From NCBI GenBank assembly GCA_048213135.1, contig PS015010.1, forward strand, positions 744,001-808,000: a DNA stretch of 64,000 nt, in the 5' to 3' direction. The notes under the pieces are model-generated. The model saw nothing but the letters and a program-made list of their open reading frames with translations, was not told where the DNA came from and made no database searches. The translations under genes were made by a program, and so were the position numbers. The stretch comes from Reclinomonas americana ATCC 50394 (lineage: Eukaryota). This document shows, piece by piece, positions 16,188 to 62,328 of this stretch. How positions within the stretch are numbered: the stretch's first letter is position 1; each line of letters opens with the position of its first letter.

Positions 16188-16256
16188 AATGTGATAATAT
16201 GCGGATGTGCGAATTTGATGATGAACGCCATCGCCTGGTCTCCCGACCAGCGATAC
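16188..16256 (+). repeat. 8-mer tract plus 34-bp REP-like hairpin
   Basis: AATGTGAT AATATGCG GATGTGCG AATTTGAT, then GAACGCCATCGCCTGGTCTCCCGACCAGCGATAC (16223-16256). Confidence 0.85.
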
Positions 16257-16260
16257 AAGA

Positions 16261-18762
16261 TTACTTCTTCTCCAAATCCAACTGCATTCTTTTGATCCTG
16301 TCCTCCAGCCGTTCGGAAGAGAGGTTATTCCGGCTGAGGCCATCGGCAATGATGGGGAAGGAGAGGGGCGTCAATTGTTGTGGGAAACGAATGACAATGT
16401 TGTTACCACTAATGCGATCGAAAGCTTCGCGGAGGCGGGCCTCTTCCATTTGTTGTTCCAGCACTTCGCGGTAGGCTTGCCTTAATAATATGTTGTTGGG
16501 CTCGTATTCGCTGAACACACGGAAAAGAAGTCCCGCGCTGCTTTGCAGGTGCCTCGATTTGATCTGCTCACCCGGCATGCCCTGGAAAATGAGTCCGCCA
16601 ATAACGGCAATGTCGCGGAATTTGCGGCGGGCCATTTCGGTATTGTTGAGGCTTTGTTGTATATCAAGCAAAAGGTTGTCGGTAGTGAACAATTCCCGGG
16701 CGTTGGTATCGTCTACAGGAATGGGTTGATTACTCAGCAATTCAAAACCATAATCATTCATGGCAATGGAAAAACTGATAGGGGTGATGCGGCTGATGCG
16801 ATGCGCTACAATAGCGCTCATGGCTTCGTGTACCTGCCTTCCTTCAAAAGGATATACCAGCAGGTGAAAGCCATCCTTGCTTTCCACCTGTTCTATCAAC
16901 AGCTCATCATCTTTAGGAATATGCGACAGTTCTTTCTGTAATTCGAACAACGCATGCAGGGCTTTGATCTCGGTTTCTTTTTCGTCGAGGAGGGCGCTGT
17001 TGAAAGTTTGTCGCAGTACGTGTCCCAGGTTGGCGGTCAGGCTCATTCTTCCGCCCATCCAACTGGGGACGATGGATTTTTTAGAGCTGGATTTCTTCAC
17101 CAGTACCGACATATCCTTTATCATCACCAGCTCCAGGTTGCGGCCTGCCAGCGTAAACACGTCGCCGGGATCGAGGCGGGATATGAAGTATTCTTCTATC
17201 ACACCTATATAACCACCGCTCATGAATTTTACTTTCAGCATGGATTCACTAACGATGGTGCCGATGTGTAAACGATGCCGCATAGCGATACGGCGGTTTT
17301 TAATTCGGTAGATACCATCTTCTCCGATCTCCACTTTTTTGTATTCATCATATTCCCGCAGCGCTTTTCCACCAGCGGTAAGGAAGAGTAGTACCTGCTG
17401 CCATTCTTCTTCTGTAATGGCAGAGAAGCAATAGGTATGACTGATCTCTTCAAAGATGATCGCAGGATCAAAGCCATCAGACACGGCAAGGGTGCACAGG
17501 TATTGCAGCAATACATCAAAGCAAAGCAGCATCGGTTCACGGCTTTCGATCACTTCTTCCCGAATAGCCGTTTTTAACGCGGCGGCTTCCACCAGTTCAA
17601 GCGAATGCGTTGGCAGGAAAAAGATACGGCTGCTGGCATCGGGCTGGTGACCACTGCGGCCGGCGCGTTGCAGGAAGCGGGCCACGCCCTTAGGCGATCC
17701 TACCTGTATAACGGCATCAACCGGGCGGAAATCGACACCCAGGTCGAGACTGGCGGTGCACACAACAGCCTTTAATCTTCCTGTATGCAGGTTTTCTTCC
17801 ACCCATAACCGCAGGTCCTGTTCAATACTGCCATGGTGCAGGGCAATGGCGCCTGCCAGGTCGGGGGAGAGATTGAGCAGGGTTTGGTACCAGCGTTCAC
17901 TCATACCTCGTGTATTAATGAAGATGAGCGTGGTTTTGTATTTTTCGATGATGGGCAAAACGCGGTGCGCCAGCTTGAGACCAAGATGTCCCGCCCAGGG
18001 AAACTTTTCTATTTCTTCCGGGATGATGGATTCAATGATGATCTTCTTATTCAGTTTGGCCTTTACGATGACACCGTCCTTTTCATGCTTGTTCCTGTTC
18101 AACCTCAACGGGGCCAGTAACACATCCCGCGCCTGATCCAGGTTACCGATGGTGGCGGAGATACCCCATATGGATAAAGCCAACGCATCATCCTGCAGCC
18201 GCCTGAGCCCGAGTATGCGGGAAATGGCCAGTTCCACCTGTACACCTCTTTTACTGCCCAGCAGTTCATGCCATTCGTCGATGGCGATGATGCGCAGGGT
18301 TTTCAATACATCAGCATAACCTTTTGATGCCAGCAGCAGGTGCAGGCTTTCGGGGGTAATGATGAGGACTTCAGGCACCTGGCGTTTTTGTTTCTGCCGC
18401 TCGGCCATGGTAGTGTCGCCATTGCGGATACCCACTCTCCATTGCATGCCCAGTTCTTCAATCACAGCTTCCATGGCCCTGCCTATGTCTTTGGCCAGGG
18501 CCCGCAGGGGTGTTACCCAAATAAGTTGCAGACCATTATTTTTTTTGAATTGGTATTTCTCGGGGTGTTCATTGATGAAATGAATGACAGCGCCAAGGAA
18601 TACAGAAAAAGTTTTACCGCAACCGGTAGGGGCATTCACGAGGCCGCTTTCGCCATTGATGATGTGCTGCCAGCTTTGTTCCTGGAACAGGAAGGGATGA
18701 TGGCCTTTTTGGGCAAGCCAGTGATGGATGGTATTATAGCCGGGGGTGGACTTTAGCTTCAA
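16261..18762 (-). CDS. Ligase-associated DNA damage response DEXH-box helicase (Lhr-core)
   Basis: APTGCGKT, TPLRAL, DEWHE, SAT, HHGS, LDLGVD and QRAGRSGH motifs. TTG start. Confidence 0.93.
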   Translation of the reverse strand: MKLKSTPGYNTIHHWLAQKGHHPFLFQEQSWQHIINGESGLVNAPTGCGKTFSVFLGAVIHFINEHPEKYQFKKNNGLQLIWVTPLRALAKDIGRAMEAVIEELGMQWRVGIRNGDTTMAERQKQKRQVPEVLIITPESLHLLLASKGYADVLKTLRIIAIDEWHELLGSKRGVQVELAISRILGLRRLQDDALALSIWGISATIGNLDQARDVLLAPLRLNRNKHEKDGVIVKAKLNKKIIIESIIPEEIEKFPWAGHLGLKLAHRVLPIIEKYKTTLIFINTRGMSERWYQTLLNLSPDLAGAIALHHGSIEQDLRLWVEENLHTGRLKAVVCTASLDLGVDFRPVDAVIQVGSPKGVARFLQRAGRSGHQPDASSRIFFLPTHSLELVEAAALKTAIREEVIESREPMLLCFDVLLQYLCTLAVSDGFDPAIIFEEISHTYCFSAITEEEWQQVLLFLTAGGKALREYDEYKKVEIGEDGIYRIKNRRIAMRHRLHIGTIVSESMLKVKFMSGGYIGVIEEYFISRLDPGDVFTLAGRNLELVMIKDMSVLVKKSSSKKSIVPSWMGGRMSLTANLGHVLRQTFNSALLDEKETEIKALHALFELQKELSHIPKDDELLIEQVESKDGFHLLVYPFEGRQVHEAMSAIVAHRISRITPISFSIAMNDYGFELLSNQPIPVDDTNARELFTTDNLLLDIQQSLNNTEMARRKFRDIAVIGGLIFQGMPGEQIKSRHLQSSAGLLFRVFSEYEPNNILLRQAYREVLEQQMEEARLREAFDRISGNNIVIRFPQQLTPLSFPIIADGLSRNNLSSERLEDRIKRMQLDLEKK

Positions 18763-18769
18763 GACGTGT

Positions 18770-18854
18770 AATTACGAATGACAAATTACGAATTACGGAT
18801 GCGTCTGCCAAAGGAGACTTGTACCGCTGGTCGGGAGACCAGGCGGTGGCGTTC
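18770..18854 (-). repeat. REP-like hairpin (18821-18854), linker and TTCGTAA heptamer tract
   Basis: Minus strand reads GAACGCCACCGCCTGGTCTCCCGACCAGCGGTAC AAGTCTCCTTTGGCAGACGCATCC GTAATTCGTAATTTGTCATTCGTAATT. Confidence 0.85.
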
Positions 18855-18920
18855 AAAGAAAGAACAGGCTGTTTCCTGCAGCCGGGTCTTACTTGCTACT
18901 TGATACTTTATACCTGCGAC

Positions 18921-20018: not shown

Positions 20019-20040
20019 GGATGATGTGTTTTTTCGGGCG

Positions 20041-20048
20041 CAAAGGTA
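20041..20048 (-). promoter_or_regulatory. Bacteroidota -7 promoter box for ychF
   Basis: TACCTTTG (TAnnTTTG) 22 nt upstream of the ATG. Confidence 0.65.
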
Positions 20049-20061
20049 CGTTTGAAATTCG

Positions 20062-20446
20062 ACAATTGGCTAATTTGATAATTCGATAATTTGTAATGTG
20101 TAAATGTGCGAATATGCGGATGAACGCCATCGCATGGTCACCCGACCAGCGATGCAAGTCATCTTACGGATGTGCAGATGAGAGGATGTGTGCATATGCG
20201 GATGTGCGGATGGGGAGAATGTGCAAATATGCAGATGAGTGGATGAGGAGATTTGAAGATGGACGCCGTTGCGTGGTCTCCCGGCCAGTGATATTTACTC
20301 TCTTTGGTGAAGAACGCCATCGCCTTGTCTCCTGACCAGCAATATTTACTCTCTTTGGTGAAGAACGCCATCGCCTGGTCTCCCGACCAGCGATACAGGC
20401 TCCCTTTGTGAAGGCATTCGTAATTAGTAATTCGTAATTAATAATT
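20062..20446 (+). repeat. Composite repeat cluster: 8-mer tracts, four REP-like hairpins (20122, 20261, 20312, 20363) and a heptamer tract
   Basis: The last three REPs repeat with a 51-bp period and an identical linker ATATTTACTCTCTTTGGTGAA. The cluster ends in GGCATTCGTAATTAGTAATTCGTAATT. Confidence 0.9.
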
Positions 20447-20487
20447 ATTGCTTTATCTTAACCTCACAAACCAACACTTATAAAACC

Positions 20488-21888: not shown

Positions 21889-21913
21889 TATTTAATATTC
21901 CTTTATTTCATTA

Positions 21914-21937: not shown

Positions 21938-21938
21938 T

Positions 21939-28569: not shown

Positions 28570-28654
28570 GATTAATTAGGAATTCCTAATTACGAATGAT
28601 GAAACAGGCTTACCGGCAGGCAGTCGCCCTGTCGGCTGTTATCCATCGTCTTCT

Positions 28655-33242: not shown

Positions 33243-33420
33243 TTACGAATTATCAATTACGAATGCCTTCAGTAAAGAGAGTAAGTATCGCTGGTCAGGA
33301 GACCATGCGATCGCGTTCATCAGTATCGCCGGTCAGGAGACCATACGATGGCGTTCATCAGTATCGCTGGTCAGGAGGCCATGCGATGGCGTTCATCTTC
33401 AAATCTTCTCATCCGCACAT
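33241..33420 (-). repeat. Composite repeat: 8-mer tract, three REP-like hairpins (38-bp period), linker and heptamer tract
   Basis: GTATCGCYGGTCAGGAGRCCATRCGATSGCGTTC at 33285, 33323 and 33361, flanked by AATTACGAAT and ATCTTCAAATCTTCTCATCCGCACAT. Confidence 0.9.
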
Positions 33421-34988: not shown

Positions 34989-35072
34989 CCGCAAAGAAAG
35001 AAGTACGCAAAGGTTACGCAAAGGCTAAATTTGCATATCCGCACATTCACAAATCATCAAATCTTCAAATCA
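34989..35072. repeat. CGCAAAG tract and 8-mer tract between convergent stops
   Basis: CGCAAAG x3 (34990-35023), then ATTTGCAT ATCCGCAC ATTCACAA ATCATCAA ATCTTCAA. Confidence 0.75.
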
Positions 35073-39598: not shown

Positions 39599-39604
39599 GG
39601 TGAT

Positions 39605-39821
39605 GATTACTAATTACTAATTATGAATTTTATCCTGAACGGAGTGAAGGATCTCATTCGCTGCGAAGACTTTATTATCATTAACTACCAGCCTGGCTTC
39701 CGGGTATCATTCGCTGGTCAGAGACCAGGCGAGGAGCCAATCATGTCCTGAGCGCAGCGAAGGATCTTCATACTCATATCTTCACATTCGCATATCCACA
39801 CATCCGCACATTCTCTCATTC
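39605..39821. repeat. Intra-operon spacer containing four repeat families
   Basis: Heptamer tract 39605-39629, GGATCT-type half repeats at 39631 and 39744, a REP core at 39711-39732 and an 8-mer tract at 39764-39821. Confidence 0.75.
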
Positions 39822-44903: not shown

Positions 44904-44945
44904 TATTACTCAATACCACTAATTATATTCATTATAAAGGGCAAC

Positions 44946-45911: not shown

Positions 45912-45916
45912 TGGGA

Positions 45917-46072
45917 TTACAAACTGATCGTCCGTTGCAGGTTAAGCTGCGCCAGGAAACGCTGATCATGTGATACAACGATAAGTGTACCCTGGTAGTC
46001 GTTTACCGCTGCCGTCAATATTTCCATATTCTGAATATCTAAATTGTTGGTAGGCTCATCCAGTATGATCAT
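45917..46072 (-). pseudogene. C-terminal remnant of an ABC-F ATPase
   Basis: Hand translation MIILDEPTNNLDIQNMEILTAAVNDYQGTLIVVSHDQRFLAQLNLQRTISL* contains Walker B, D-loop and H-loop but no Walker A or signature motif. Confidence 0.8.
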
Positions 46073-46201
46073 GCCGGTTTTTTTCGTTGTGTTGCATCGC
46101 TCCCGGCGAAGCCTTTTCCGTATAAACCGATATTTTGTAATTCGTAATTCACAATTATCCTGCCTTTTGCTTAATTTCCCAGTTGTTAAACCAAAACCAA
46201 C

Positions 46202-47977: not shown

Positions 47978-48001
47978 CGAACTGACTTTACCAACTATTA
48001 G

Positions 48002-48028
48002 ACCCCCGGCATGCCGGGGGTTTGTTTT
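48002..48028 (+). terminator. Intrinsic terminator
   Basis: ACCCCCGGC AT GCCGGGGGT followed by TTGTTTT. Confidence 0.8.
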
Positions 48029-48140
48029 AACCCCTAAGAGCGGAGGACGCAGAGATAACGCAATGGGTTTTCCTGTGTAATTCTGTGTGAATTACCGTTT
48101 AAGTATATTTGCAGCGGAAAACTGAAAGACAAAGAATTAT

Positions 48141-49163: not shown

Positions 49164-49190
49164 ATCGGGTAATTCCTGGTGCTTCTGGGA

Positions 49191-50171: not shown

Positions 50172-50247
50172 ACTATTTAAAGATACGGAAAGAATTACGG
50201 ATTACGGATTGGCATACATCGTAATATCGTGGAATTGAAATGTGCTC

Positions 50248-50859: not shown

Positions 50860-51772
50860 TGTTCTCCTTCGTGCATACGGTAATACCAAATACGATCTTC
50901 TTAAAAAATGCGTCGGACACTTCAACCTGTGTACGGCCGCCATAATCCCAGTAAATGAGGAGGATGCCCGTTTCGGAACGGGTAATCTTTTCCAGTATCA
51001 GGAAATGGGTGGGGATGGCCACGCTGACCTCGTTGTGGTTTTTTTTGTGCAGGAGCCGGTTGTTGATATAAAGGGCAACGGTTCCCGTCGTTATTTTTTC
51101 ACTTACATAAGTATAGAGATCGTCAATGCTTGGGCGTATGATATCGGCGCCGCGGGCATGGACCTTGTAATTCAGCAGTTTCCGCACCATGCGGTTGAAC
51201 TTCGCATAGTTAACGGATGCCCAGAAAGTATCTTCGTCACCCGGGTCGTAGTTGTGGTTGAAAATATTGACGTACCCTTTAAATTCATCGGCCAGCGTAA
51301 GGTAAAACAGTTGTTCAGCGGGACGTATGTCGAGTATGCCTTTGTAGCGCAGCCTGCCCGCCGCTTTTTTTATTGACGCGGAAGGATTAAAGGATACCCT
51401 GCCCAGTTTGGCCTTACCCTCCTGGTACAGTTCTACCAGGAAACGGGCATAGCCCAGCGGATCATCATGCAGGAAAAGATAGGACAGGGCGCCATAGCCG
51501 CAGAAGTTGGTACCCCTGCCGGGATACATGCTCAGCGGGTTCTCTATGTTGGTGCGGACGTTGGCCAGGAATTTATCGGGTTTAACATTGGGCCAGGAAG
51601 TACTCTGTGTAAGCCCGGCGAACTGGTCAAGATAGACGAGGGCCTCCTGCTGCGTACTGGTATGCAGGGTAAAACCGCCAGGCAATAAGGAGCCTGCCTG
51701 TGTCCGGGCGGGGAGGAAATTGCAGACCGCCGACCAGAAAATAAAAAGCCTGAAAACAATAGCCAGTTTCAA
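50852..51772 (-). CDS. Secreted hypothetical protein, possible papain-fold cysteine peptidase
   Basis: Signal peptide. NFCGYGAL ... PTHFLIL ... IYWDYG gives a Cys-His-Asp order. Confidence 0.7.
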   Translation of the reverse strand: MKLAIVFRLFIFWSAVCNFLPARTQAGSLLPGGFTLHTSTQQEALVYLDQFAGLTQSTSWPNVKPDKFLANVRTNIENPLSMYPGRGTNFCGYGALSYLFLHDDPLGYARFLVELYQEGKAKLGRVSFNPSASIKKAAGRLRYKGILDIRPAEQLFYLTLADEFKGYVNIFNHNYDPGDEDTFWASVNYAKFNRMVRKLLNYKVHARGADIIRPSIDDLYTYVSEKITTGTVALYINNRLLHKKNHNEVSVAIPTHFLILEKITRSETGILLIYWDYGGRTQVEVSDAFFKKIVFGITVCTKENND

Positions 51773-52011
51773 AATACCTGATTTAACGATGAAGGTAATA
51801 AAAATGACGAATAGCCCGTAAATCCGTGAGAATAAGTGTGTTTGGAACTTTTTAACATTAGGTTAATTTATCCTCTTTTCACTGGCTATCAGCCACCGAT
51901 CCGGCAAAAACCCTACCAAAATAGTAGAGAAATTTTAAAATGACGCTTTTCAATGTTTAAACATTGTATATTTGCCGTATACAATTTATCTTTAACACTT
52001 ATTGTCCTGGT

Positions 52012-52467
52012 ATGGCAAAGAAAATGAAACCCCTTTACCGCTACCTGCTTATAGGCGGCGGCGTACTCTTCCTGGCGGGCGCTGTTACGGCCTGGTGGAT
52101 ACTGACCGATAAATTCGCGGATACCACCACGCGTAAACCGCACTTTACCGTACAGGCGCAGGACTTTATCAATGAATTCCAGAAAGACCTGAAAGCGGCC
52201 AATGCGAAGTATACCGAGAAGATCGTTGTTGTAAACGGTGTGGTATCGGAACTGGAATCGGCCGATACCACCATTAATGTGAAGATTGCCGATACAGCCA
52301 CAGGCTCCTACGCCATCTTCGCTTTCCAGGAACAGCACCTGGCGGAAGCCAAACAGTTGAAGGAAGGAGACCAGGTATCCATTAAGGGGTCTTGCAGCGG
52401 CGGAGCTTACAGTTCTATACTGGAGGCTTACTTTATCACCTTTAAGCGCTGCGCCCTGAACAAATAA
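52012..52467 (+). CDS. OB-fold (tRNA_anti-like) membrane-anchored protein
   Basis: N-terminal TM segment, ANAKYTEKIVVVNGVV and LKEGDQVSIKGSC. A -7 box lies at 51967. Confidence 0.8.
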   Translation: MAKKMKPLYRYLLIGGGVLFLAGAVTAWWILTDKFADTTTRKPHFTVQAQDFINEFQKDLKAANAKYTEKIVVVNGVVSELESADTTINVKIADTATGSYAIFAFQEQHLAEAKQLKEGDQVSIKGSCSGGAYSSILEAYFITFKRCALNK

Positions 52468-52501
52468 TTCCATCGTCATCAATCAAACAAAATCAACAAT
52501 A

Positions 52502-53044
52502 ATGAAAAAAGCATCTTTATTCCTGGCACTGGCCTTTGCATCCGGCGCCATATTCGCCCAAAAGAAAACAACCACTTCCGGTACCATCGCTTTCGACGCT
52601 ACCACCAGCCTCGACCAGTTCCCTAAAGCGGAGAACAAAACAGCTGTGGCCGCACTTGACACTAAGAAAGGCACAGTAGCTTTCGAAGCCATCATCAAGA
52701 ATTTCGCTTTTTCCAATCCCAAGATACAGGAGCATTTCAACGGGGAAGGCTGGATGAATTCAGAAAAATTTCCTACGGCTACTTTCAAGGGCAATATCAC
52801 CAACCTGTCGGCTGTTGACTTTAAAAAAGATGGTACTTACACTGCCGATGTTGCAGGTGACCTCACCATCCATGGTGTAACCAAACCGGTTAAAACAACC
52901 GCTACCATTACTGTTGCAGGTAAAAGCATCAGCACCAAATCTGATTTTTCCATTAAACTGGAAGATTACAATGTAAGCGGACCCGCTATTGGCGCTGGTA
53001 AAGTGGCCAAAGAACCTAAGATATCTGTAAGTGCAGCTTTCTAA
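52502..53044 (+). CDS. YceI family protein
   Basis: Signal peptide, QEHFN...SEKFPTATFKG and GDLTIHGVTK motifs. Confidence 0.9.
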   Translation: MKKASLFLALAFASGAIFAQKKTTTSGTIAFDATTSLDQFPKAENKTAVAALDTKKGTVAFEAIIKNFAFSNPKIQEHFNGEGWMNSEKFPTATFKGNITNLSAVDFKKDGTYTADVAGDLTIHGVTKPVKTTATITVAGKSISTKSDFSIKLEDYNVSGPAIGAGKVAKEPKISVSAAF

Positions 53045-53062
53045 GCCGCTCCAGGATACAAT

Positions 53063-53100
53063 AAATAAAAAACGCCCCTTTACCTGGGGCGTTTTTATTT
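53063..53100. terminator. Bidirectional terminator
   Basis: AAAAACGCCCC...GGGGCGTTTTT. Confidence 0.85.
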
Positions 53101-53142
53101 AAAAAGTAAAAATTTAAAAGAAGCTAAGTAGCTGATGCACTT

Positions 53143-53913
53143 TTATCCGGGTGTGAATATCCTGCTGAGCAGTTCATACAGTTCAGGGTGTTTTTGCCGG
53201 AGCAGGTCGGGGCGCTCAAAAAAATATTCGCCTGCAACGGCCAGGAATTCGGCCTGGTTGGTAGCGCCGTAAGGGTTGATGTCAGACTGATCATCAACGA
53301 TCTCCTTTATCTGCCGGTGCATCATATTTACCCATGGCAAAACATAGGCTGACTGCAGGAATACTTCCGGAATGCCGTCGGTAGCGCCGTCGGATTTATC
53401 CACCAGGTGAATGAATTCGTGTATGGCGGTGTTGTTTTTGTCTGTTTTATTCGAAAATCCTTCCCGCAACGCATGACGGCTAAGTATCATCTGGTTCTGC
53501 ATGGCGCCTTCACCCACCATACCCAGGATAATCCTTTCGTTATTGCCTCCCTGTTCAAATTCGTGGTTGAAGGAATCCGGGTAAACCAGTACTTCATTCA
53601 GGTTGCGGTATTCCCAGCCCGGGAAAGCGAAAATGGGGATAATAGCGCTGGCGGCTACAAATACCCGGTCTTCATCGGTCACTTCCGTCCGGATACCGGT
53701 AACGCGTACCCGCTCCAGGAAGCGGCTCATCCGGTTTTCAAATTCAATTTTCTTTCCTGCATCCAGTCTTTGATAGAACAATACGTTGTCTTCCAGTATA
53801 CGCCTGTATTCCGGCTGGAACCCCTGCGTGGGAAGCGGCATTTTTTTTCTCCGGGAACGGCTGAGCCACAGCAGCATGGCAATAAGCAGTATGGGAAAGA
53901 TGATGTAGGCCAT
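53143..53913 (-). CDS. Zinc-dependent peptidase, M90/MtfA family
   Basis: HEFIH, DGATDG.P and YGATNQAEFLAV..EYFFERP motifs. Confidence 0.9.
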   Translation of the reverse strand: MAYIIFPILLIAMLLWLSRSRRKKMPLPTQGFQPEYRRILEDNVLFYQRLDAGKKIEFENRMSRFLERVRVTGIRTEVTDEDRVFVAASAIIPIFAFPGWEYRNLNEVLVYPDSFNHEFEQGGNNERIILGMVGEGAMQNQMILSRHALREGFSNKTDKNNTAIHEFIHLVDKSDGATDGIPEVFLQSAYVLPWVNMMHRQIKEIVDDQSDINPYGATNQAEFLAVAGEYFFERPDLLRQKHPELYELLSRIFTPG

Positions 53914-54002
53914 TCCGGCAAAAATACCCAATCCGGGGTATATGGCAGGCAGGAGAAAAAATGATTTTTGTGTAACCTGATTAACTCCTAAAAAGTACTT
54001 AC

Positions 54003-54482
54003 ATGAAAAAGACCAGAACCATTTTATCTGCATTACTCATTTCAGCAACCTTATTCAGCTGTGGCAAGGGTGGCGACGAGGCTATCACCGGCGGCGGCAA
54101 CATGACGGCCAAAGTAGACGGCTCCGGTTACAGTGCAACACTGGCGGTACAGGCCACCTTATCGGGCACTTCGCCAAAAGTATTATCTGTAGCGGGTACC
54201 GGCAGCTCGGGCCAGATCAATATTACGCTAAGCAACTATACCGGGCCGGCCACGTATGTCCTGGGCAGCGGCGTATTTGATAATATCGCCACTTTTACAC
54301 TTACCGCAAGCCCTTTTACCTCCTATTCGGCATCAGGAGTACTGGGGTCAGGTACAGTAAAGATCACATCCGACAGCGGTGGTTATGTGGAAGGAACATT
54401 CAGTTTTTCGGGAAAGAACAATGCAGGCGGTACCATTACCACCAAAGATATTACTGAAGGAAATTTTAAGATAAAACTCTGA
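54003..54482 (+). CDS. Hypothetical beta-rich lipoprotein (DUF6252-like)
   Basis: Lipobox LFSC, MTAKVDG and EGTFSF...ITEGNF. Confidence 0.75.
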   Translation: MKKTRTILSALLISATLFSCGKGGDEAITGGGNMTAKVDGSGYSATLAVQATLSGTSPKVLSVAGTGSSGQINITLSNYTGPATYVLGSGVFDNIATFTLTASPFTSYSASGVLGSGTVKITSDSGGYVEGTFSFSGKNNAGGTITTKDITEGNFKIKL

Positions 54483-54514
54483 CCCGTAACCGTTACCCTT
54501 AAACTAACTGCACC

Positions 54515-54539
54515 AGCCGGGATACGTCCCGGCTTTTTT
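54515..54539 (+). terminator. Intrinsic terminator
   Basis: AGCCGGGA TACG TCCCGGCT followed by TTTTT. Confidence 0.85.
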
Positions 54540-54544
54540 ATTGG

Positions 54545-56764
54545 CTAACGGATAAGAAGAACCGTTCCTTTTTCTGAAAAGGCGAACCCGTTTTTAATGT
54601 AAGTAAAACTCCATACGTATACACCCGCAGGCTGTTTCTGTCCCTGGTAAGTTCCGCGCCAGTTCACGTTGTTGCCCCGGCTTTCGAAGACAGGCTGCCC
54701 GTAACGGTTGAATACCCGGAAATGTATATTTTCCAGGGCAGGGTTAAATACCGGTCTGAATGCATCATTGAGTCCGTCGCCGTTAGGTGTAAAGGCTTTG
54801 GGTACGTATACATCTTCGCATCCCCCGCCGAGCGGCAGCCCGATTTTTGTACTGATGGTATCCGTCTTGCATCCATCCCGGTTGTATATGGAGATAAGAT
54901 AAGTGCCGATGGCCAGCCCGCTTACAGTTTCCCCGCTGTTGTGCCGTATCCCGCCAATTTCGAACTGGTAAGGACCTTCGATGCCTGTCGTCGTCACTTT
55001 CAATTTTGCAGGCTGATCGCAGGAGGGATCGGTTTTGACGATGCTGGTATTGCCGGGCGTTACAGGAAATGGTTTCACTTCCGCGGTCCTCTCCCAGATG
55101 CAATAATTCCGGCTGGCGATCTTTATGGGATAAATGCCCGGGGCGAGATTGCTGTAGACAAAATTGGGAGAATAACCTTCATGATTAAAATCAACAAGGA
55201 ATGGGGTAGCTGGACCGGTGATGGTGAGTGCTACTTCGCCATTGTTGTTGAGACAGAACTGGTCTTTGACTGCAATATCAATACTGGGCTCATCATCGAT
55301 AAACTTACGGATGGTAATCAGGGTATCCATTTTACAGGTCGACAAACCTTCCCGGTAGCTTACACTGGCAAGGAAAACGCCTGCATCAAGTCCTGTTGCC
55401 ACTAAACCGGTTTGCAAAACATTATTGATATAGAATGATACGTTGGCTGCATTCGTACCGGGTGCCAGGGTAACAGTGATCTTGCCTGTTTTACTGTCGC
55501 AGCCCGTTGGTGTGCCTTCTACCGTTTTTACAAAAGTGGGATTATTGATAAAGGGCAGGTGAATGGTGGTATCGAAGCGGCAGCCTCTTGCATCCCTTAC
55601 CGAAAGCCGCCAGAAACCGCCGACCAGTCCATCAAAAATACCGCTGGAGTTTACCCAGTAATCATTCATAACGTACACCAACGGTCCGTAACCGGAATTG
55701 GCGGTTACCGTAATAACACCCAAGGGTACACCCGGCGCTTTACAGCCCATAGGTCTTACAGACGTGATCTGGATATCGGATAGCCCGTGCAATAGATTGA
55801 CCAGGCTGTCCTTTCGGCAGCCCAGTGCGTTCTCTATCGTTATGGTATGCGAACCTTCGGGTACATTCCCGAAAATGCCGGTACTATTGGTAATAGTATT
55901 ATCGAGTGTATAGGTAAGTCCAGCTGCAGGAGAGAACGCGTTTACCGTGATGCTGCCATTCGTTTCATTCAGGCAGGGTGGTTGTAAATTGATCGAATTG
56001 AATTTTACACCGCTCACCGTGCCGTTATCGGTAATGCTGCCTGCATCACGAACAACATAAGGTACCTGACAGGATATGCCAAGCACGGTCTTATTTTCAA
56101 GATCCAGTTCCACCAGGTCGGTATTGCTGCCATTGGGAGAAAGACCGTAGTAACGGTTCTGTTCACAACCATCGGGAATGGACAACAGGCCGGTAAAAGC
56201 AAAAGCGCCGGTGTTCATGTAAACGGTGCTGGCAGCAGGATCGGAAAGATTGATCTCGCAGATGCGGTTGTTGAGGGTGGAGAGCAATAATTTGTCTTTG
56301 TAAAAAATAAGGTCCCCGCCTGCTGGCTGGTTAATGCGGCCCAATATGGCTTCTTCATCCGTATAAGGGTTATACCGGTAAAGTTCTGTAGAGTTATGAT
56401 CTACAGCGTACAGCACGCCATTCTTATCCGCGGTAAGGGAATTGAGTGCGGAGCTGCCGTCGGGCGTATTGATGGCGAAAAACTTGACCCTTTTGCAGGA
56501 GCCGGGCACACCTGGTTTAAAGCTGTAAATGGTATTGTTCTCACCCACCATGTACAGGGTGTCTTTATGCAATGCAATACTGAAAATACGTTCGCTGAAT
56601 TCCTGGTTACAATAGTACCCGGCATCGGTGAAAGCACAACTTCCCGGCGGGCCAAACATCTGGTGCAGGCTGGTCGTGGTATTGAAATAAACGGTTTGGG
56701 CATGTAAGTTTTGCCATAGTAACATAACAAAAATCACAAGCGCCACTGGTAAAGGACGACGCAT
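54545..56764 (-). CDS. T9SS type-B (CHU_C / gliding-motility) CTD protein with SprB-like repeats
   Basis: C-terminal VPKAFTPNGDGLND.F...FNRYG...GVYVW...KGTVLLIR, with internal C...G.I.V...GC repeats. Confidence 0.88.
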   Translation of the reverse strand: MRRPLPVALVIFVMLLWQNLHAQTVYFNTTTSLHQMFGPPGSCAFTDAGYYCNQEFSERIFSIALHKDTLYMVGENNTIYSFKPGVPGSCKRVKFFAINTPDGSSALNSLTADKNGVLYAVDHNSTELYRYNPYTDEEAILGRINQPAGGDLIFYKDKLLLSTLNNRICEINLSDPAASTVYMNTGAFAFTGLLSIPDGCEQNRYYGLSPNGSNTDLVELDLENKTVLGISCQVPYVVRDAGSITDNGTVSGVKFNSINLQPPCLNETNGSITVNAFSPAAGLTYTLDNTITNSTGIFGNVPEGSHTITIENALGCRKDSLVNLLHGLSDIQITSVRPMGCKAPGVPLGVITVTANSGYGPLVYVMNDYWVNSSGIFDGLVGGFWRLSVRDARGCRFDTTIHLPFINNPTFVKTVEGTPTGCDSKTGKITVTLAPGTNAANVSFYINNVLQTGLVATGLDAGVFLASVSYREGLSTCKMDTLITIRKFIDDEPSIDIAVKDQFCLNNNGEVALTITGPATPFLVDFNHEGYSPNFVYSNLAPGIYPIKIASRNYCIWERTAEVKPFPVTPGNTSIVKTDPSCDQPAKLKVTTTGIEGPYQFEIGGIRHNSGETVSGLAIGTYLISIYNRDGCKTDTISTKIGLPLGGGCEDVYVPKAFTPNGDGLNDAFRPVFNPALENIHFRVFNRYGQPVFESRGNNVNWRGTYQGQKQPAGVYVWSFTYIKNGFAFSEKGTVLLIR

Positions 56765-56850
56765 AGACAGGCAGAGTTGTCTTAAATATACACTTTATTG
56801 CTGATGTATGAAAATCACAAGCCGTCTGGTAGTGCTGCAATTTCATTTTT

Positions 56851-56918
56851 TGGTCATTCCAACGAAGGAGGAATCTCTTTCCAGTGGTGAGAGATACCTC
56901 GTTACCCCGGTATGACCA
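56851..56918. repeat. GTCATTCC...GGAATCT / AGATACC...ATGAC palindromic repeat element
   Basis: Imperfect inverted repeat TGGTCATTCCAACGAAGGAGGAATCTCT ... AGAGATACCTCGTTACCCCGGTATGACCA. Confidence 0.7.
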
Positions 56919-56975
56919 ATAAGGGGAATTCAAATTGGTGCATTACCGGCAACAATTCCATTGTTGTAACACAAC

Positions 56976-58709
56976 CTACCTGCTAACCTGCCCGCCTTTC
57001 CTGCTGTCCACACTAATGCTGTATTTGGAGTTGCCCTGTATGATCCAGCGCACAGTAACATAACCCAGCCCGGGAATATTTTTCACGGCAATGCTGGATG
57101 GATTGTTTTTTTGTTCGGTGCTGATATTGAGATCAGGATTATCTACGATCATACCTGCCAGCACTTTGGCGCCGGAGATGCTGATGTAATCGGGGCGTTC
57201 AATTTTATATTTCAGGTCCTGGCTGCTGTGCGTGGGCATCAGCCTGCTGTTGGAGATCACGGCAGTCACCTGTTTCAGGCCGTCACCAAGGTCTTTTTCC
57301 ATTACGGTGTCTACATTCAGTTTGGGTGTATGATAGCAATGGTAGATGGTGAAGGCCATATTGCGGTGGGCATCGCTTTCGAGCAGGAACCCGGGATGCG
57401 CCCTGCTGAAGTTTTTCTTAAAACCGCCGATCTCTATTTTACCGTACTGCGGATGATCGTACTCGTGCCAGTCAACGAAGGCGTCCTTAAACAGCAGGTA
57501 ACGGTCAAACTGGAAAGAACTGTTGTCCTGCGGATCGCGTGTGGCGTCCCTGTTGAACATGAGATAAGGTGTCCACAATTCATTGGAATACGTATATACA
57601 CCACGTCCGCCATAGAACCAGTCGAGTTCACCGCCATAAGCGGAGTAGAGGTCTTTGTACACTACCAGGTATTTATAACCGGGAATGAGTTCTTCTCCTT
57701 TTTTGGCGATCTGGTCATACACCTGAACGTCCTGCGCATTGTAAGTAACCAGGTCATTGGGATCGCCGGGGCCGCGGAGGATCATACCGCCGGCATTGTG
57801 GTAAGATTGCGCCGCGGCGATATTGGGATGCGCCATCACAAATTCCATTACAGCCCTGTTCTCAGGAAGCGAGAAGGGGTATTTATAAGCGCCGTTCTGT
57901 ATGTAGTTGGGCTGCCATCCCCAGCCCCAGTCGCGGTTAGGATCATATTGAAAAGTGTACCCGTCTTCGTTTACGAGACCGTCACCATCATTGTCTTTTC
58001 CTTCCTGCCCGAGTATTTCATAATCGCCTTTTTCGTCGGGGCCTACCTGTATCATACGCCTGCTGTCGGAAGGATCGACACGGTAACGGCCATTGGGATT
58101 CTTCCTGCGCATGATGAGAATTTCGTTGTCGCCGTCAAGATCATCGTAACCATCTTCATCGGTAAGACCGTCGCGGTCATTGTCTACCGGCAATACACCT
58201 GACCTGGGTGAGTGAGCGGTATTGGGGGCGTGGAAATAACTGTCGCGGCCATCTGGGTTGATGGTGGGAACGATATAGAATACTTTATCGGCCAGCAGTT
58301 CCTGTATGAATTTAGTATCGCCGAAAGATTCGGTGAGGTACCAGGCGGTATACAAGGCGAATTCGCTGCCCTGCACTTCATTGCTGTGTATGTTGCCGTC
58401 TATGTACATGCCCGGCTTCTTAGCGGCGTCGCCTTTTTTGAAATCGGTAATGGTGAGGCACCAGATATCGCGGCCGTTGTAGGACTTGCCTATGGACTCC
58501 AGTTTGGCGAGTTGCGGCCAGGCTGCGGCGATCTTTTTACAGATGTCGGTAATGCCGGCGTGGTCATTGTACCGGTTCCAGCTGATGGTTACTTTGGGGT
58601 TTACCGGTGAGCCGCTGGCTTTGAAGAACTGGCCCTGTGTTTGGGCATTGATATTACCTGCACAGAACAGGGCGAACGCGGTGCATATATTCTTTATACT
58701 AAGTTTCAT
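56976..58709 (-). CDS. M14 zinc carboxypeptidase with DxDxDG insert
   Basis: GNIHSNE (HxxE), NPDG, DPNRDW, SYHN and NELW motifs. Confidence 0.9.
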   Translation of the reverse strand: MKLSIKNICTAFALFCAGNINAQTQGQFFKASGSPVNPKVTISWNRYNDHAGITDICKKIAAAWPQLAKLESIGKSYNGRDIWCLTITDFKKGDAAKKPGMYIDGNIHSNEVQGSEFALYTAWYLTESFGDTKFIQELLADKVFYIVPTINPDGRDSYFHAPNTAHSPRSGVLPVDNDRDGLTDEDGYDDLDGDNEILIMRRKNPNGRYRVDPSDSRRMIQVGPDEKGDYEILGQEGKDNDGDGLVNEDGYTFQYDPNRDWGWGWQPNYIQNGAYKYPFSLPENRAVMEFVMAHPNIAAAQSYHNAGGMILRGPGDPNDLVTYNAQDVQVYDQIAKKGEELIPGYKYLVVYKDLYSAYGGELDWFYGGRGVYTYSNELWTPYLMFNRDATRDPQDNSSFQFDRYLLFKDAFVDWHEYDHPQYGKIEIGGFKKNFSRAHPGFLLESDAHRNMAFTIYHCYHTPKLNVDTVMEKDLGDGLKQVTAVISNSRLMPTHSSQDLKYKIERPDYISISGAKVLAGMIVDNPDLNISTEQKNNPSSIAVKNIPGLGYVTVRWIIQGNSKYSISVDSRKGGQVSR

Positions 58710-58720
58710 GATGCCGGGTA

Positions 58721-60361
58721 TTAAAGGTTGAGGTCGATGGTTTTACTGCCGGTGGTAGGACTGCCTGCTTCTACAGTCAGTTTGCCGGTGCCTTTGATGA
58801 GCCAGGTGAGCTGCTGCGTGGCATAACCTTCCAGCGAGTTGAGCACCTGTATGCGTTTGCCGCTGATGACCGACTGGCCCGAAGCCATACCCAGCTTAAC
58901 ATTGATCCTCTTCACAAAATTGTTCCTTTCGCCGAGTTTGGTATGTGAAGCCAGCGCGCCGCGGTTAATAACGTCAACGGTTATACGCGTAAGACCGCTG
59001 CCGGTTTTTTCAGTTTTGATGTTGATGATGTCCAGCTCCGGCTGGTAACCTGCCAGCTTTACCAGGAACTGGCTGTTCTTTTTCACCAGGTCAGACACCA
59101 GCTGGTAAGGCGGTGTAGTCATAACAAAAGGAGAGATGCCACCCACTTCTACTTTTTGCCCGGGAAAGCCTGGATGATTGATGGTTTTCCATTCCGTGAA
59201 ACTGCCGGTAATATTTTGCTGGCCGGCCCAGCGCAGGTAATTGGCTGAAGCGTCTTCCTGGGTAAATGCTTTTTCGCTGCGGGCGCTGTCGGGTTTGGTT
59301 TTGGGTACCCACCAGCCGGGTGTGCTGAAGCTGTAACGGCCATAGTGATAGTAGCCCCATGACAGCAGATCGCCACCGGCAACACTGGTCTTTGGAGCGT
59401 CTTTCAAACCGGTCACTTTATTATAGAGTTCAGATACGAACGCGTTCACCTTGGTATCGGGCTCCAGCCAGCCGGCGATAAGGCTTTGCGTTGCGGCGGC
59501 GGAATTGAAAGTGTAAGGTGTACTGAGGTTGTTATTGCTGCCGAATGATACCACAGCATATACATTGAAACGGTCGAACAGCACATCGAGGAGGGCCCTG
59601 CTTTCTTTTTCCGATACCGGGAATTCGCCTGCGCCCGGTGTGAAAGACGGATGTTTATAGCTGAGGTTTTTATTGAAAGCCACGCCGCCGTCGCCGTCTT
59701 CGTTAAAGCTGCCGTCGTTATCATTGTCGGCGCCTTCGGGCAGCAGGATGTATTTTCCTTTTTCACCTTTGCTGATATCAGCTTTTACAAGAATCCTCGG
59801 ATCATCGGGGTGGGTTTTATAATCGCCTACGGGGCTTTCGATCCGCATCCAGGTGATCTTACCATTGCCGTCAAGATCATCGGGTCCGTCCTCATTGGAT
59901 TGCCCGTCGCGGTCGTCATCGGTAACGGTACTGTTGCCGGTGCGTTCGTACTGCAGTTTGGCGAAGTACTGTTCCATAGCGTCGGGGCTCATATTGGGGA
60001 AAATGTAGAACGTGGTTTTGCCGAGCAGGGTTTTGATGCTGTCGGTACCGGAACCCTGCAGCAGGTTCTCTGCAAAGCCAATGGCGAGTTCGGTACCCAG
60101 TATATGGTTGCCTTCCACACCGCCTATAACAGCGATGGCGGGCTTGCTCTCGGTGTTGCCGCTGCCGATGGTCAGTTGCCAGATGGCTTTACCACCGCCG
60201 GTGACAGCAATAGATTTGAGCTGCGCCAGCTGCGGATAGGTCTTGGCAATATTTTTTAAACGGTTGGTTTGTGCCGTGAAATCGCTGTAGCCGCTTTGCG
60301 CCCTTGACAGAAGGGGTGAAAACAACAGCAGCGTGGCAAGTTTTGGTAACAGGTGCGCCAT
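58721..60361 (-). CDS. M14 carboxypeptidase homolog, probably catalytically degenerate
   Basis: Same architecture as the neighbour, but GGVEGNH, SFGS and TPGW replace the Zn and catalytic motifs. Confidence 0.85.
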   Translation of the reverse strand: MAHLLPKLATLLLFSPLLSRAQSGYSDFTAQTNRLKNIAKTYPQLAQLKSIAVTGGGKAIWQLTIGSGNTESKPAIAVIGGVEGNHILGTELAIGFAENLLQGSGTDSIKTLLGKTTFYIFPNMSPDAMEQYFAKLQYERTGNSTVTDDDRDGQSNEDGPDDLDGNGKITWMRIESPVGDYKTHPDDPRILVKADISKGEKGKYILLPEGADNDNDGSFNEDGDGGVAFNKNLSYKHPSFTPGAGEFPVSEKESRALLDVLFDRFNVYAVVSFGSNNNLSTPYTFNSAAATQSLIAGWLEPDTKVNAFVSELYNKVTGLKDAPKTSVAGGDLLSWGYYHYGRYSFSTPGWWVPKTKPDSARSEKAFTQEDASANYLRWAGQQNITGSFTEWKTINHPGFPGQKVEVGGISPFVMTTPPYQLVSDLVKKNSQFLVKLAGYQPELDIINIKTEKTGSGLTRITVDVINRGALASHTKLGERNNFVKRINVKLGMASGQSVISGKRIQVLNSLEGYATQQLTWLIKGTGKLTVEAGSPTTGSKTIDLNL

Positions 60362-60421
60362 GAACGAATGTTTGCACTAAGATATGTTTTCGGCGACAAC
60401 ATGCAATAGGAAGGTGGCAGA

Positions 60422-60675
60422 GAATGATGAATGGCGGGCAACGGAATGAAAGAATGAAGGAAGGAAGAATGAAGGAATGGGGTTATGTCCCATCGGGACA
60501 TCTGGTGGGTAACAGTATGACGAGTGTTCCACGCCGGTGAGGTTTTGCGTGAGGGATAGCAGCGAAAAGCCCGGACGCCGAGGTACGAGGGGAGGACTTG
60601 CAGCGAATAGCCCGGCCCGCAGGGACACGCCGTAATAAAAATGAAAAAATGAAAGAATGAAAAAATGAAGGAATG
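60422..60675. repeat. AATGAARG 8-mer tracts (60422-60479, 60638-60675) and a small hairpin at 60485-60501
   Basis: GAATGAAA GAATGAAG ... AATGAAAA AATGAAAG AATGAAAA AATGAAGG, and ATGTCCC ATC GGGACAT. Confidence 0.7.
60546..60631 (-). ncRNA. Flavo-1-like structured RNA or repeat
   Basis: GGCGTGTCCCTGCGGGCCGGGCTATTCGCTGCAAGTCCT...GGGCTTTTCGCTGCTATCCCTCACGCA, with a GCGTG/CACGC closing stem. The match to Flavo-1 is from memory of the motif and was not searched. Confidence 0.6.
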
Positions 60676-60736
60676 GTGAAAATAAATGCTTTCTTGAAGT
60701 AAGGGCATTCGTAATTTGTAATTCGTAATTAGTAAT

Positions 60737-60744
60737 TACCTTTG
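60737..60744 (+). promoter_or_regulatory. -7 promoter box for prfB, 4 nt before the ATG
   Basis: TACCTTTG CGGC ATG. Confidence 0.65.
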
Positions 60745-60748
60745 CGGC

Positions 60749-61838
60749 ATGACAACAGAACAAATTAAGGATATGAGAGACCGCGTTTTGGTCTTGAGGA
60801 GGTTTCTTTGACGTCGCTAACCGCGAAGCCAAGATAGCCAACGATAAACAATTGTCCCTTTCCCCGGGCTTCTGGGATGACAACACAAGGGCAACCGCCA
60901 TTCTCAAAGAAACCAAGGTTAATGAGTATTGGGTGAATATGTACCACAGCGTGGAAACCGCCGTGGAGGATTTCGCCGTGCTTTTTGATTTCTGGAAAGA
61001 AGGAGAGGCGACTGAAGAAGAAGTGAAAACGGCCCATACCGCGGCCATTACGGCTATTGAAGAGGCCGAGTTCAAAAGTACACTCAACAAACCCGAAGAC
61101 GAGATGGTGGCCGTGCTGCAGATCAACAGCGGCGCGGGTGGCACCGAAAGCCAGGACTGGGCCGAAATACTGGCCCGTATGTACCGTATGTATGGCGAAA
61201 AGCAGGGCTGGGATGTAAGCGAACTCGACTGGCAATGGGGCGACGGTGCCGGTATCAAAACCTGTACTTTCCAGTTTGACGGGCCTTTTGCCTACGGATT
61301 CCTGAAAGGGGAAAGCGGCGTGCACCGCCTGGTGCGGATATCGCCGTTTGACAGTAATGCCCGCCGTCATACCAGTTTCGCTTCTGTATATGTATACCCG
61401 CTGATCGACGACAGTATAGAAATTACCGTTAACCCCGCCGATGTTGAATGGGCCTTCTTCCGCAGTGGCGGCAGTGGTGGTCAGAACGTGAACAAAGTGG
61501 AAACGGCGGTAAGGCTTACACACAAACCCAGCGGCATCATCATTGAATGCCAGCAGGCCCGTACGCAGGGTGAGAACAGGGAGAAAGCCATGTCGATGCT
61601 CAAAAGCCGCCTGTACGAAGAGGAAATGCGCAAACGCCAGGAAGCCATTGACGCGACCAACAGCAACAAGAAAAAGATAGAGTGGGGCAGCCAGATCAGG
61701 AGTTATGTGTTCCATCCTTATAAAATGATCAAAGACCACCGCACCGACTATGAAGTGGGTAATGTGCAACCTGTTATGGACGGGGATTTGGAAGGTTTTA
61801 TTAAGGCCTACCTGATGAGTGAGAAAGAAGCGGAATAA
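60749..61838 (+). CDS. prfB: Peptide chain release factor 2, with a programmed +1 frameshift
   Basis: ORF1 [23 protein letters not shown], shift site CTT TGA C at 60806-60812, and SPF and GGQ motifs in the +1 frame. Confidence 0.97.
60797..60812 (+). other. RF2 frameshift cassette
   Basis: AGGAGG TTT CTT TGA C. Confidence 0.95.
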
Positions 61839-61877
61839 TTTGAAAATTTGATGATTTGGAGATTTGAAGATTGAGAT
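61837..61877 (+). repeat. RATTTGRA 8-mer tract after the prfB stop
   Basis: AATTTGAA AATTTGAT GATTTGGA GATTTGAA GATTGAGA. A complementary tract lies at 62297-62326. Confidence 0.8.
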
Positions 61878-61938
61878 GCGGGAATCCGCAAACAATGTGG
61901 CGCCCGGATAGGTAACTTCAGATCTCAATCATTCATTT

Positions 61939-62328
61939 ATGAGGAGTGGGACAAAAAACCTGGTAGTTGAACTTAGTTTTGCATTTGCGGTTAAGATCAT
62001 CAAATATGCAGAGGTATTGGAGCAGGGCCGCAGGTATGTTATTGCCAGGCAGGTATTAAAATCCGGAACAAGTATCGGTGCCAATGTGAGGGAAGCGCAG
62101 AATGCGGAGAGCAAGCCTGACTTTACGCATAAATTAAAAATTGCGGCAAAAGAGGCGGATGAAACAGAATATTGGTTGTTACTTTGCAAAAGATCTGAAG
62201 GGTACCCGGATTGCGATGACTTATTAAATGATTGCTGTTCTATTATAAAAGTGCTATCCAAAATTATTGCCACATCGAAATCGAACCCATTGGCAGATCA
62301 ACAAATTTCCAAATCTTCAAATCAATAA
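61939..62328 (+). CDS. Four-helix-bundle protein (TIGR02436 / 23S rRNA IVS protein / Avd-like)
   Basis: QVLKSGTSIGANVREAQNAESKPDFTHKLKIAAKEADETEYWL. Confidence 0.93.
   Translation: MRSGTKNLVVELSFAFAVKIIKYAEVLEQGRRYVIARQVLKSGTSIGANVREAQNAESKPDFTHKLKIAAKEADETEYWLLLCKRSEGYPDCDDLLNDCCSIIKVLSKIIATSKSNPLADQQISKSSNQ

Follow-up and report, generated by a model that had tools for sequence, protein, structure and literature searches.

The 64,000-nt stretch of contig PS015010.1 from position 744,001 to 808,000 (assembly GCA_048213135.1), hereafter the window, carries short tandem arrays of 7- and 8-nt units in the spacers between its genes, and the question raised by this locus is why these arrays lie in a fixed orientation relative to the gene ends beside them. 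An earlier note on this DNA had listed such tracts, described one form as lying after stop codons and the complementary form as lying before starts, and proposed that they could be arms of a gene-cassette insertion system, pairing arms for RNA processing, or oriented protein-binding sites. All of the tracts cited there are present, at or within a few bases of the positions given. The polarity is a single mirror-symmetric rule, in which the G-carrying strand runs 5' to 3' away from the nearest gene, start or stop alike, and each spacer therefore reads from a G-form to a C-form on both strands.

Polarity of the intergenic arrays

The arrays are intergenic tandem arrays of period 7 and 8, belonging to the class of heptamer or long simple-sequence repeats, and they are polar. 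Tandem Repeats Finder located arrays of period 7 or 8 at 18770, 18890, 20056, 20167, 20416, 35050, 39606, 39783, 50194, 60444, 60637, 60707, 61838, and 62302. Spacers make up 9.1% of the window, and all 10 copies of TTCGTAATT lie in them (p=4e-11), which compares with 0.54 copies expected anywhere and with none of 100 shuffles reaching 10. As single words, GATTTGAW (9 vs 6.2 expected; 15/100 shuffles as high) and ATGTGCGR (8 vs 4.8 expected; 12/100 shuffles as high) are not enriched in the window overall; the spacers hold six of the nine GATTTGAW (p=4e-5) and six of the eight ATGTGCGR (p=1e-5), both of which are tandem there. The following tracts bear on the rule (coordinates, strand, description).

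8170..8444 (+): 21-nt tandem array occupying the left part of the fasciclin/hyp283 spacer, G-form on the plus strand (G 82, C 41)
8568..8637 (-): 24-nt array x3, C-form on the plus strand, 6 nt before the open reading frame (ORF) start at 8644; complementary to 10676-10725
10676..10725 (+): 24-nt array x2.2, G-form on the plus strand, 45 nt from the start of the minus-strand gene ending at 10630
16188..16223 (+): 8-mer array (G 11, C 2), 22 nt upstream of the probable minus-strand pdeM start
18770..18797 (+): 7-mer array AATTACG x4, 7 nt from the Lhr helicase start
18890..18913 (-): different 7-mer array (TACTTGA on the plus strand; C 5, G 2), 7 nt from the ychF stop
20056..20118 (+): 8-mer array, G-form, 37 nt from the ychF start
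20167..20262 (+): 8-mer array of the CGGATGTG type in the interior of the ychF/spm spacer (G 40, C 7)
20416..20447 (-): 7-mer array, ATTCGTA form on the plus strand, 40 nt before the spm start
28575..28600 (+): short 7-mer tract, violating the rule by its nearest gene end
33243..33265 (+): 7-mer tract, beginning at the ndh stop codon
33395..33420 (-): 8-mer tract abutting the stop of the minus-strand gene 33421-33936, C-form on the plus strand
34989..35025 (+): 11-nt repeat of the CGCAAAG type, beginning directly after the kinase stop
35032..35072 (-): 8-mer array, C-form on the plus strand, abutting the GH35 stop
39603..39626 (+): 7-mer array of the ATTACTA variant, lying 4 nt away from the cutC start
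39772..39821 (-): 8-mer array abutting the asparaginase stop, C-form on the plus strand (C 19, G 2)
46135..46160 (-): lone 7-mer tract, 41 nt before the permease start
48073..48093 (+): 10-nt repeat of the CTGTGTG type, violating the rule
50194..50210 (+): lone 7-mer array ATTACGG x2.4, 22 nt from the YitT start
60422..60479 (+): 8-mer array of the GAATGAAA type, 60 nt from the M14 peptidase start
60637..60690 (+): second array of the GAATGAAA type, located inside the 7-mer array with its G-form 49 nt upstream of prfB, in violation of the rule
60707..60737 (-): 7-mer array, ATTCGTA form on the plus strand, ending 12 nt upstream of the prfB ATG (60750) and occurring in multiple copies in public metagenome runs

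Scored against a hand-curated gene map, 21 of 24 tracts in the window obey the rule (binomial p=2.8e-4), the violators being those at 28575, 48073, and 60637; the balanced 7-mer contains a single G and a single C, and its TTACGAA strand plays the role of the G-form. These 24 tracts share 14 spacers and are not independent tests, because several belong to mosaics of fixed order, and such a mosaic obeys the rule whichever way it lies. Mosaics run on the plus strand at 16188, 20019, 60362, and 61838 and on the minus strand at 18763, 33243, 34989, and 39599, while the cumulative GC skew climbs from 0.06 to 0.51 along the window with three small dips. The orientation is therefore not set by the replication strand. 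Nor is it due to chance. The description of the tracts by starts and stops also holds, while its wording masks the one mirror-symmetric rule. Several single assignments are weak: the AATTACG said to follow the kinase stop at 34975 is a single unit within the last codons of the kinase ORF, the GCAGAG after 47977 is a lone word about 65 nt from the stop, the tract before 48141 has more G than C on the sense strand, contrary to the rule, and the tract at 28581 assigned to the deoR start (77 nt away) lies closer to the stop of the neighbouring gene (54 nt).

The window encodes SusC/SusD, CHU_C, and SprB domains, which affiliates it with Bacteroidota, and its YchF protein is up to 92% identical to those of Ferruginibacter and other metagenome-assembled genomes of Chitinophagaceae. 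We examined 80 ychF loci of other Chitinophagaceae (1.28 Mb). The tandem forms of the window and its hairpin repeat (see below) are absent from all 80, which contain scattered single words only; these relatives carry their own species-specific units instead, in 146 intergenic arrays with periods of 7 (71 arrays), 8 (39), and 9 (14), i.e., 124/146 with period 7-9. Among arrays up to 60 nt from a start, 8 have G>C in the sense strand and 33 have C>G, and for arrays up to 60 nt from a stop the numbers are 46 and 5, respectively (Fisher p=2.8e-12). All classes of spacer obey the rule, as shown by the counts of obeying and violating arrays in convergent (25:3) and divergent (25:5) spacers and in tandem spacers at the start (14:5) and at the stop (17:4). 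The median distance of the arrays to stops is 7 nt, with 19/67 touching the stop codon, and that to starts is 20 nt, with many arrays clustering 4-9 nt away. At 1-30 nt upstream of starts, the repeat-free DNA of these relatives is likewise G-poor (C>G 487 vs G>C 197). After stops, however, repeat-free DNA has a skew of -0.045 (slightly C>G), opposite in sign to the arrays, and the polarity on the stop side is therefore not background composition. As in the window, the units of the relatives, such as TAATGGA, AGTATAAG, and GTTAATTA, have isolated G only.

The ychF gene itself illustrates this placement in many genera: around both of its ends (at about 10001 and 11095 of loci L001-L080) different units occupy the same positions. 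At least 12/80 loci have an array ending 4-9 nt upstream of the ychF start, and 11/80 have one that begins 0-20 nt downstream of the stop.

Metagenome contigs were scanned for two units of the 7-mer of the window, which yielded 80 loci with a GC content of 0.25-0.67, none of them orthologous to the window, and arrays were scored if they lay within 150 nt of an ORF end. Here, 51 of 65 arrays read TTCGTAA toward the nearest gene, at starts (23:4) as well as at stops (28:10; p=4.5e-6), and arrays left out as coding conceal at most two more violations, on the start side. A 7-mer without G/C skew is thus also polar. The claim that these repeats are not random microsatellites is borne out in the window, in the relatives, and in the metagenome loci.

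Stop-codon content was considered as a cause of the polarity and rejected. The upstream form of the 7-mer is rich in stop codons, while the upstream GATTTGAA form is free of them, and in the relatives the start-proximal units contain stops in 27 sense vs 30 antisense cases (n=44) and the stop-proximal units in 39 vs 23 (n=55).

A four-helix-bundle gene within complementary arms

The spacer between prfB and pruA contains the intact form of such an arrangement, in which a four-helix-bundle gene lies within complementary arms that extend from the prfB stop codon to 4 nt before the pruA start. Its parts are as follows.

61838..61880 (+): left 8-mer arm, G-form, starting in the prfB stop codon; shorter by one 8-nt unit in one strain
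61939..62328 (+): four-helix-bundle gene, the only one in the window (PF05635, 76.7 bits, E=1.9e-21; TIGR02436, 92.8 bits, cut-off 24)
62297..62326 (-): right 8-mer arm, C-form, ending 4 nt before the pruA start and pairing with the left arm

The duplex predicted for the two arms has an energy of -33.5 kcal/mol (z=-5.9), which none of 200 shuffles equalled. When 61830-62340 was folded, both the minimum free energy and the centroid structure closed the cassette via the arms, although the z of the whole sequence was only -1.2. In three relatives, prfB and pruA are adjacent as well, and their spacers of 83, 173, and 247 nt are without a four-helix-bundle gene.

The four-helix-bundle family is present in 12 of 13 relatives, with 0-11 copies per genome. 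In 30 loci of the relatives, the arrays upstream of the four-helix-bundle gene are in the G-form (16:1) and those downstream in the C-form (23:1), with both present in 15/30. Four-helix-bundle genes are thus the one gene class whose polarity is opposite to that of the host genes. As the order of G-arm, gene, and C-arm in an inverted pair holds on either strand, the gene is interior to the unit and no preferred direction is implied. Counted in fixed windows, arrays occur on both sides in 15/27 four-helix-bundle loci (14 of them complementary) vs 2/29 loci of GxxExxY genes (Fisher p=9.5e-5). RNA duplexes predicted between the 220-nt flanks, too noisy a measure to be relied on, gave -68 vs -50 kcal/mol for mismatched flanks at four-helix-bundle genes and -55 vs -44 kcal/mol at GxxExxY genes. 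The earlier suggestion of gene-cassette arms is thus supported for the four-helix-bundle class, which has the complementary arms, the empty site in three relatives, and the two-sided arrays. Neither a GxxExxY nor a GIY-YIG gene is found among the 13 small or unassigned ORFs of the window. In the open-access literature we found no paper tying four-helix-bundle genes to heptamer arrays.

GxxExxY genes (PF13366) also number 0-11 per genome in the relatives, and an array of period 6-9 is nearby in only 9/30 of their loci. Units of the CGCAAAGA, CACAAAGA, and ACAGAGAA types adjoin several of these genes (L131, L143, L144, L151, and L136) and resemble the CGCAAAG repeat at 34989-35025 after the kinase stop of the window. 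GxxExxY genes with their own flanking units may represent a second cassette type.

Parts of the region 58000-64000 are contained in 20 public runs (13 studies), and contigs of three of them (X3, X4, and X5) and of an RNA library (X19) were aligned to 44001-64000. A near-identical contig of X4 has exactly 8 nt fewer in the left arm of the cassette. Many contigs in all four sets match just the 7-mer array 60707-60737 and then diverge, which indicates that this array is multi-copy. One relative, represented by a single X19 contig that is about 95% alike, carries a stretch of about 205 nt ahead of 62287 where the full cassette would be; this contig indicates neither transcription nor RNA ends. In X3, a joint from 61871 to 62302, skipping 430 nt with 15 other letters between, was considered as an empty allele and rejected, as its shorter side is only 21 nt and X3 also contains the filled site. 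We read this joint as another locus sharing the same arms.

Hairpin repeats and spacer mosaics

The arrays of the window are the outer parts of mosaics that fill the spacers, in which a 5' array and a 3' array flank an interior that is empty or consists of 35-nt hairpin repeats or of a four-helix-bundle gene. In the recurring order, an 8-mer array of the GATTTGAA or GATGTGCG type is followed by one to three hairpin copies, a short linker, and a 7-mer array of the ATTCGTA type. This order is found on the plus strand at 20019-20487 and partly at 16188-16260, and on the minus strand at 33243-33420, 18763-18920, and 39599-39821. The hairpin repeat has 10 copies in the window, all in spacers, and its 10-bp stem is preserved, with compensatory changes at 2 of the 10 stem pairs.

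8451..8485 (+): hairpin copy with compensatory stem changes
16223..16257 (+): hairpin copy
18820..18854 (-): hairpin copy with a compensatory change
20122..20156 (+): hairpin copy interrupting the 8-mer array
20261..20397 (+): three hairpin copies with a 51-nt period
33284..33394 (-): three hairpin copies with a 38-nt period

Among 401 genomes of the family, the hairpin core reaches a maximum of four copies per genome (four in G257, one in G001, and one in G008), and a smaller search of five genomes found it once each in G001 and G003. The DNA identity of G257 to the window is only 65-75%, and no close genome was found.

Further spacer motifs of the GAAGGATCT and CGAAGGAGGAATCTC types occur at 39654-39665 / 39753-39764 and at 56850-56930. 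One such set, in the cutC/asparaginase spacer, forms an inverted pair around a diverged hairpin copy.

Comparison with known repeats and mobile elements

Cyanobacteria have been known to carry heptamer repeats since about 1990, and we know of no accepted function for them. In Nostoc punctiforme, small dispersed repeats were reportedly described within heptamer arrays by Elhai in 2008, comparable to the hairpin copy that interrupts an 8-mer array here (20122-20156). In a previous study, the heptamers GGGAATC of Xanthomonas and GGGGA(C/T)T of Nostoc PCC 7120 follow the same placement rule, often overlapping the stop codon, and quadruplex formation was discussed for these G-rich units (Rehm 2015, PLoS One, PMC4692102). 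The arrays studied here resemble them as intergenic 7-nt tandem arrays with the same polarity and without preference for a replication strand (PMC4692102). They likewise have a multi-copy tandem unit of about 7 nt, placed within about 50 bp of an ORF end, with the G-strand in sense after stops and in antisense before starts. Quadruplex-capable G runs are missing, and the arrays are not filed in the quadruplex-forming subclass. Unlike those heptamers, the units here are AT-rich with an isolated G, periods of 8 (and 9) are common, the host belongs to Bacteroidota (Chitinophagaceae), and the arrays are combined with hairpin repeats and a four-helix-bundle gene. In the accessible part of the Rehm paper, the rule is not stated as mirror-symmetric and is not linked to a cassette (PMC4692102).

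Another heptamer, TAACTGA, forms direct repeats in Beggiatoaceae, cyanobacteria, and five Bacteroidetes. These repeats read forward where they precede starts, and one set, located after the stop of a Bacteroidetes gene, is in reverse (MacGregor 2015, Front Microbiol, PMC4679880). Like the arrays here, these end a few nt before starts, and the unit has equal G and C, as does AATTACG of the window. That text, however, follows one unit across phyla as the site of a translational regulator (PMC4679880), whereas here the units vary with the species and the rule is independent of start or stop. The polarity rule is therefore already published for G-rich heptamers (Rehm 2015, PMC4692102) and partly for TAACTGA (MacGregor 2015, PMC4679880). 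New here are polar AT-rich 7- and 8-mers unable to form G-quadruplexes, their mosaics with a 35-nt hairpin, the reversed polarity at four-helix-bundle genes, and a TIGR02436 gene between prfB and pruA that is closed by complementary arms at a site empty in three relatives.

The 23S rRNA genes of Leptospira and Coxiella carry ORF-bearing intervening sequences (IVSs), in which a four-helix-bundle ORF lies inside complementary flanks that form a long stem. The prfB-pruA cassette shares with them the PF05635/TIGR02436 ORF and the complementary flanks, and by this analogy has the build of an ORF-bearing 23S rRNA IVS, with excision by RNase III being putative. Unlike an IVS, it lies between the protein genes prfB and pruA rather than in a 23S rRNA helix, and its arms are tandem 8-mers.

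The hairpin recalls repetitive extragenic palindromic (REP) elements, whose genomes encode a cognate transposase of the RAYT type; REPINs and bacterial interspersed mosaic elements (BIMEs) were reportedly treated by Bertels and Rainey in 2011. Like these, the hairpin of the window is a short imperfect palindrome with a conserved stem and many extragenic copies in a fixed order with other motifs. Its copies are tandem, with periods of 38 and 51 nt, and not inverted pairs as in those elements.

Possible origin of the polarity

We tentatively propose, with a probability of about 0.45, that the arrays, with a built-in layout of G-form first and C-form last, are arms or remnants of IVS-like cassette units and have been shaped further by slippage. 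Most arrays other than those of the prfB-pruA spacer would then be gene-less, decayed, or single-armed derivatives of such units, reshaped through slippage by one unit per step. The layout might persist by placing a G-poor stretch before any downstream start in either orientation of the unit. Such a stretch, without AUG, GUG, or UUG, would fold poorly and would match the G-poor leaders of Bacteroidota. Because it is built into the unit, the layout would also be found between two stops, where no start codon could select for it. Paired arms in the RNA may further allow RNase III to remove the cassette from the host transcript.

Several observations weigh against the cassette origin. A four-helix-bundle gene stands beside a 7-mer array in only 2/80 metagenome loci. 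In the relatives, left and right arrays are often unrelated in unit (e.g., L004, L007, L013, L025, and L042) and many arrays are single, so that arrays need not be arms of anything. Only two of the eight tested tract pairs of the window are complementary, namely the prfB-pruA arms and the 24-mer pair, while the other six gave z values of -1.0 to +0.6, and the proposal of pairing arms holds for those two pairs and fails for the six. The comparison of orthologous spacers for filled and empty sites, which the earlier note had suggested, yielded the empty prfB-pruA spacers of the three relatives but no clean filled/empty difference within the species, as X3, X4, and X5 are all filled. The argument from leader composition fails for the balanced 7-mer, which lacks G/C skew and, upstream of starts, is rich in T instead of A. 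Moreover, the genes of the relatives and metagenome loci are greedy ORF calls, and in the relatives the arrays left out as coding add up to three violations on the start side.

The main rival, which we consider rather unlikely, is that local slippage creates arrays anywhere in the spacers and that the surviving orientations are those compatible with expression, i.e., G-poor before starts and C-poor after stops, with no cassette or mobile unit involved and with four-helix-bundle genes merely favouring repeat-rich spacers. On the stop side, a possible reason is that C-rich, G-poor untranslated RNA would load Rho. This explanation agrees with strains that differ by exactly one unit, with species-specific units at identical ends of ychF, and with the G-poor background before starts, and it accounts better than the cassette origin for the many single arrays and non-complementary pairs. 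It explains less well the stop side, where the polarity (46:5) opposes the background composition and holds in convergent spacers without a nearby start (25:3), the zero-skew unit, which is polar nonetheless (51/65), and the brackets at four-helix-bundle genes (15/27 vs 2/29 at GxxExxY genes). Rho is, to our knowledge, absent from cyanobacteria. The same rule in Nostoc, as described in Rehm 2015 (PMC4692102), also speaks against slippage followed by selection on RNA. It seems quite improbable that the arrays serve as oriented, multimeric binding sites for a protein that recognises single-stranded nucleic acid and adjusts translation or the stability of mRNA, as was suggested for TAACTGA repeats with ribosomal protein S1, cold-shock, or CsrA-like proteins (MacGregor 2015, PMC4679880). 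The tight placement, 4-9 nt before starts and at stop codons, would suit such sites, but the units vary among species and can differ from one end of a spacer to the other, so that no single sequence-specific protein fits, and the mirror symmetry amounts to the same rule of DNA orientation at starts and stops.

G-quadruplexes of the G-rich strand, the only published explanation of heptamer polarity known to us (Rehm 2015, PMC4692102), have next to no chance of setting placement and polarity here, even though the placement rule matches that report. The units GATTTGAA, ATGTGCGG, AATTACG, and GAATGAAA of the window and the three isolated-G units of the relatives named above have no G runs, and the rule still holds at p=2.8e-12. 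Since the same polarity is found with quadruplex-incapable and zero-skew units in every kind of spacer, the quadruplex explanation drops out. The remaining testable explanations are a built-in cassette layout or selection on the RNA entering and leaving genes. Chance gains something from the small sample of the window and from the assignment of tracts by proximity in the earlier note, yet the window (21/24), the relatives, and the metagenome loci (p=4.5e-6) leave it a negligible probability; the same applies to an effect of the replication strand, given mosaics on both strands under a rising skew and, in Rehm 2015 (PMC4692102), no leading- or lagging-strand preference either. Quadruplexes, chance, and the replication strand are ruled out for this lineage.

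A further-reaching form of the cassette origin, which we regard as very improbable, is that arrays and four-helix-bundle gene together make up a cross-phylum selfish cassette that resides in spacers or within rRNA and is taken out of the RNA through its paired arms. The arms would then arise not by slippage but by templated repeat addition to the 3' ends at a break in the spacer, with the Avd-like four-helix-bundle protein serving as the cofactor of the element itself. If true, templated addition would account directly for the strand running 5' to 3' away from both genes and for a period fixed at 7-8.

Gene ends and other features of the window

The arrays are also of value for annotation, as they flag true gene ends to within a few bases. 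The start of prfB (60750-61838) is at 60750 and not at 60740, and the 7-mer array stops 12 nt short of its ATG. This gene contains the classic +1 frameshift site at about 60798-60812, AGGAGG followed by TTT CTT TGA C, and thus retains a Shine-Dalgarno-like element, though leaders elsewhere in the phylum are G-poor. The longest ORF of PdeM (15512-16258) passes through the 8-mer array, and its TIGR04123 match begins at residue 40; for this reason, the true pdeM start is probably the ATG near 16165, with the array upstream. Arrays are therefore able to produce false N-terminal extensions.

The array at 8170-8444 is a degenerate G-rich 21-nt repeat of about 10-13 copies, for which periods of 42, 63, and 84 score as well. 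It overlaps an ORF at 8294-8647 that has no credible family match. The 24-nt arrays at 8568-8637 and 10676-10725 are mutually complementary (-68 kcal/mol, z=-11.4). The 2 kb that they bracket hold three genes (hyp283, one for a GNAT acetyltransferase, and hyp224) and could be a repeat-bounded gene block. At the Rfam gathering threshold, no match, including rRNA, was obtained in the window. Finally, the CHU_C/M14 spacer varies among strains at 56916, with loose ends in X3 and X4 and an agreement of 0.82-0.83.

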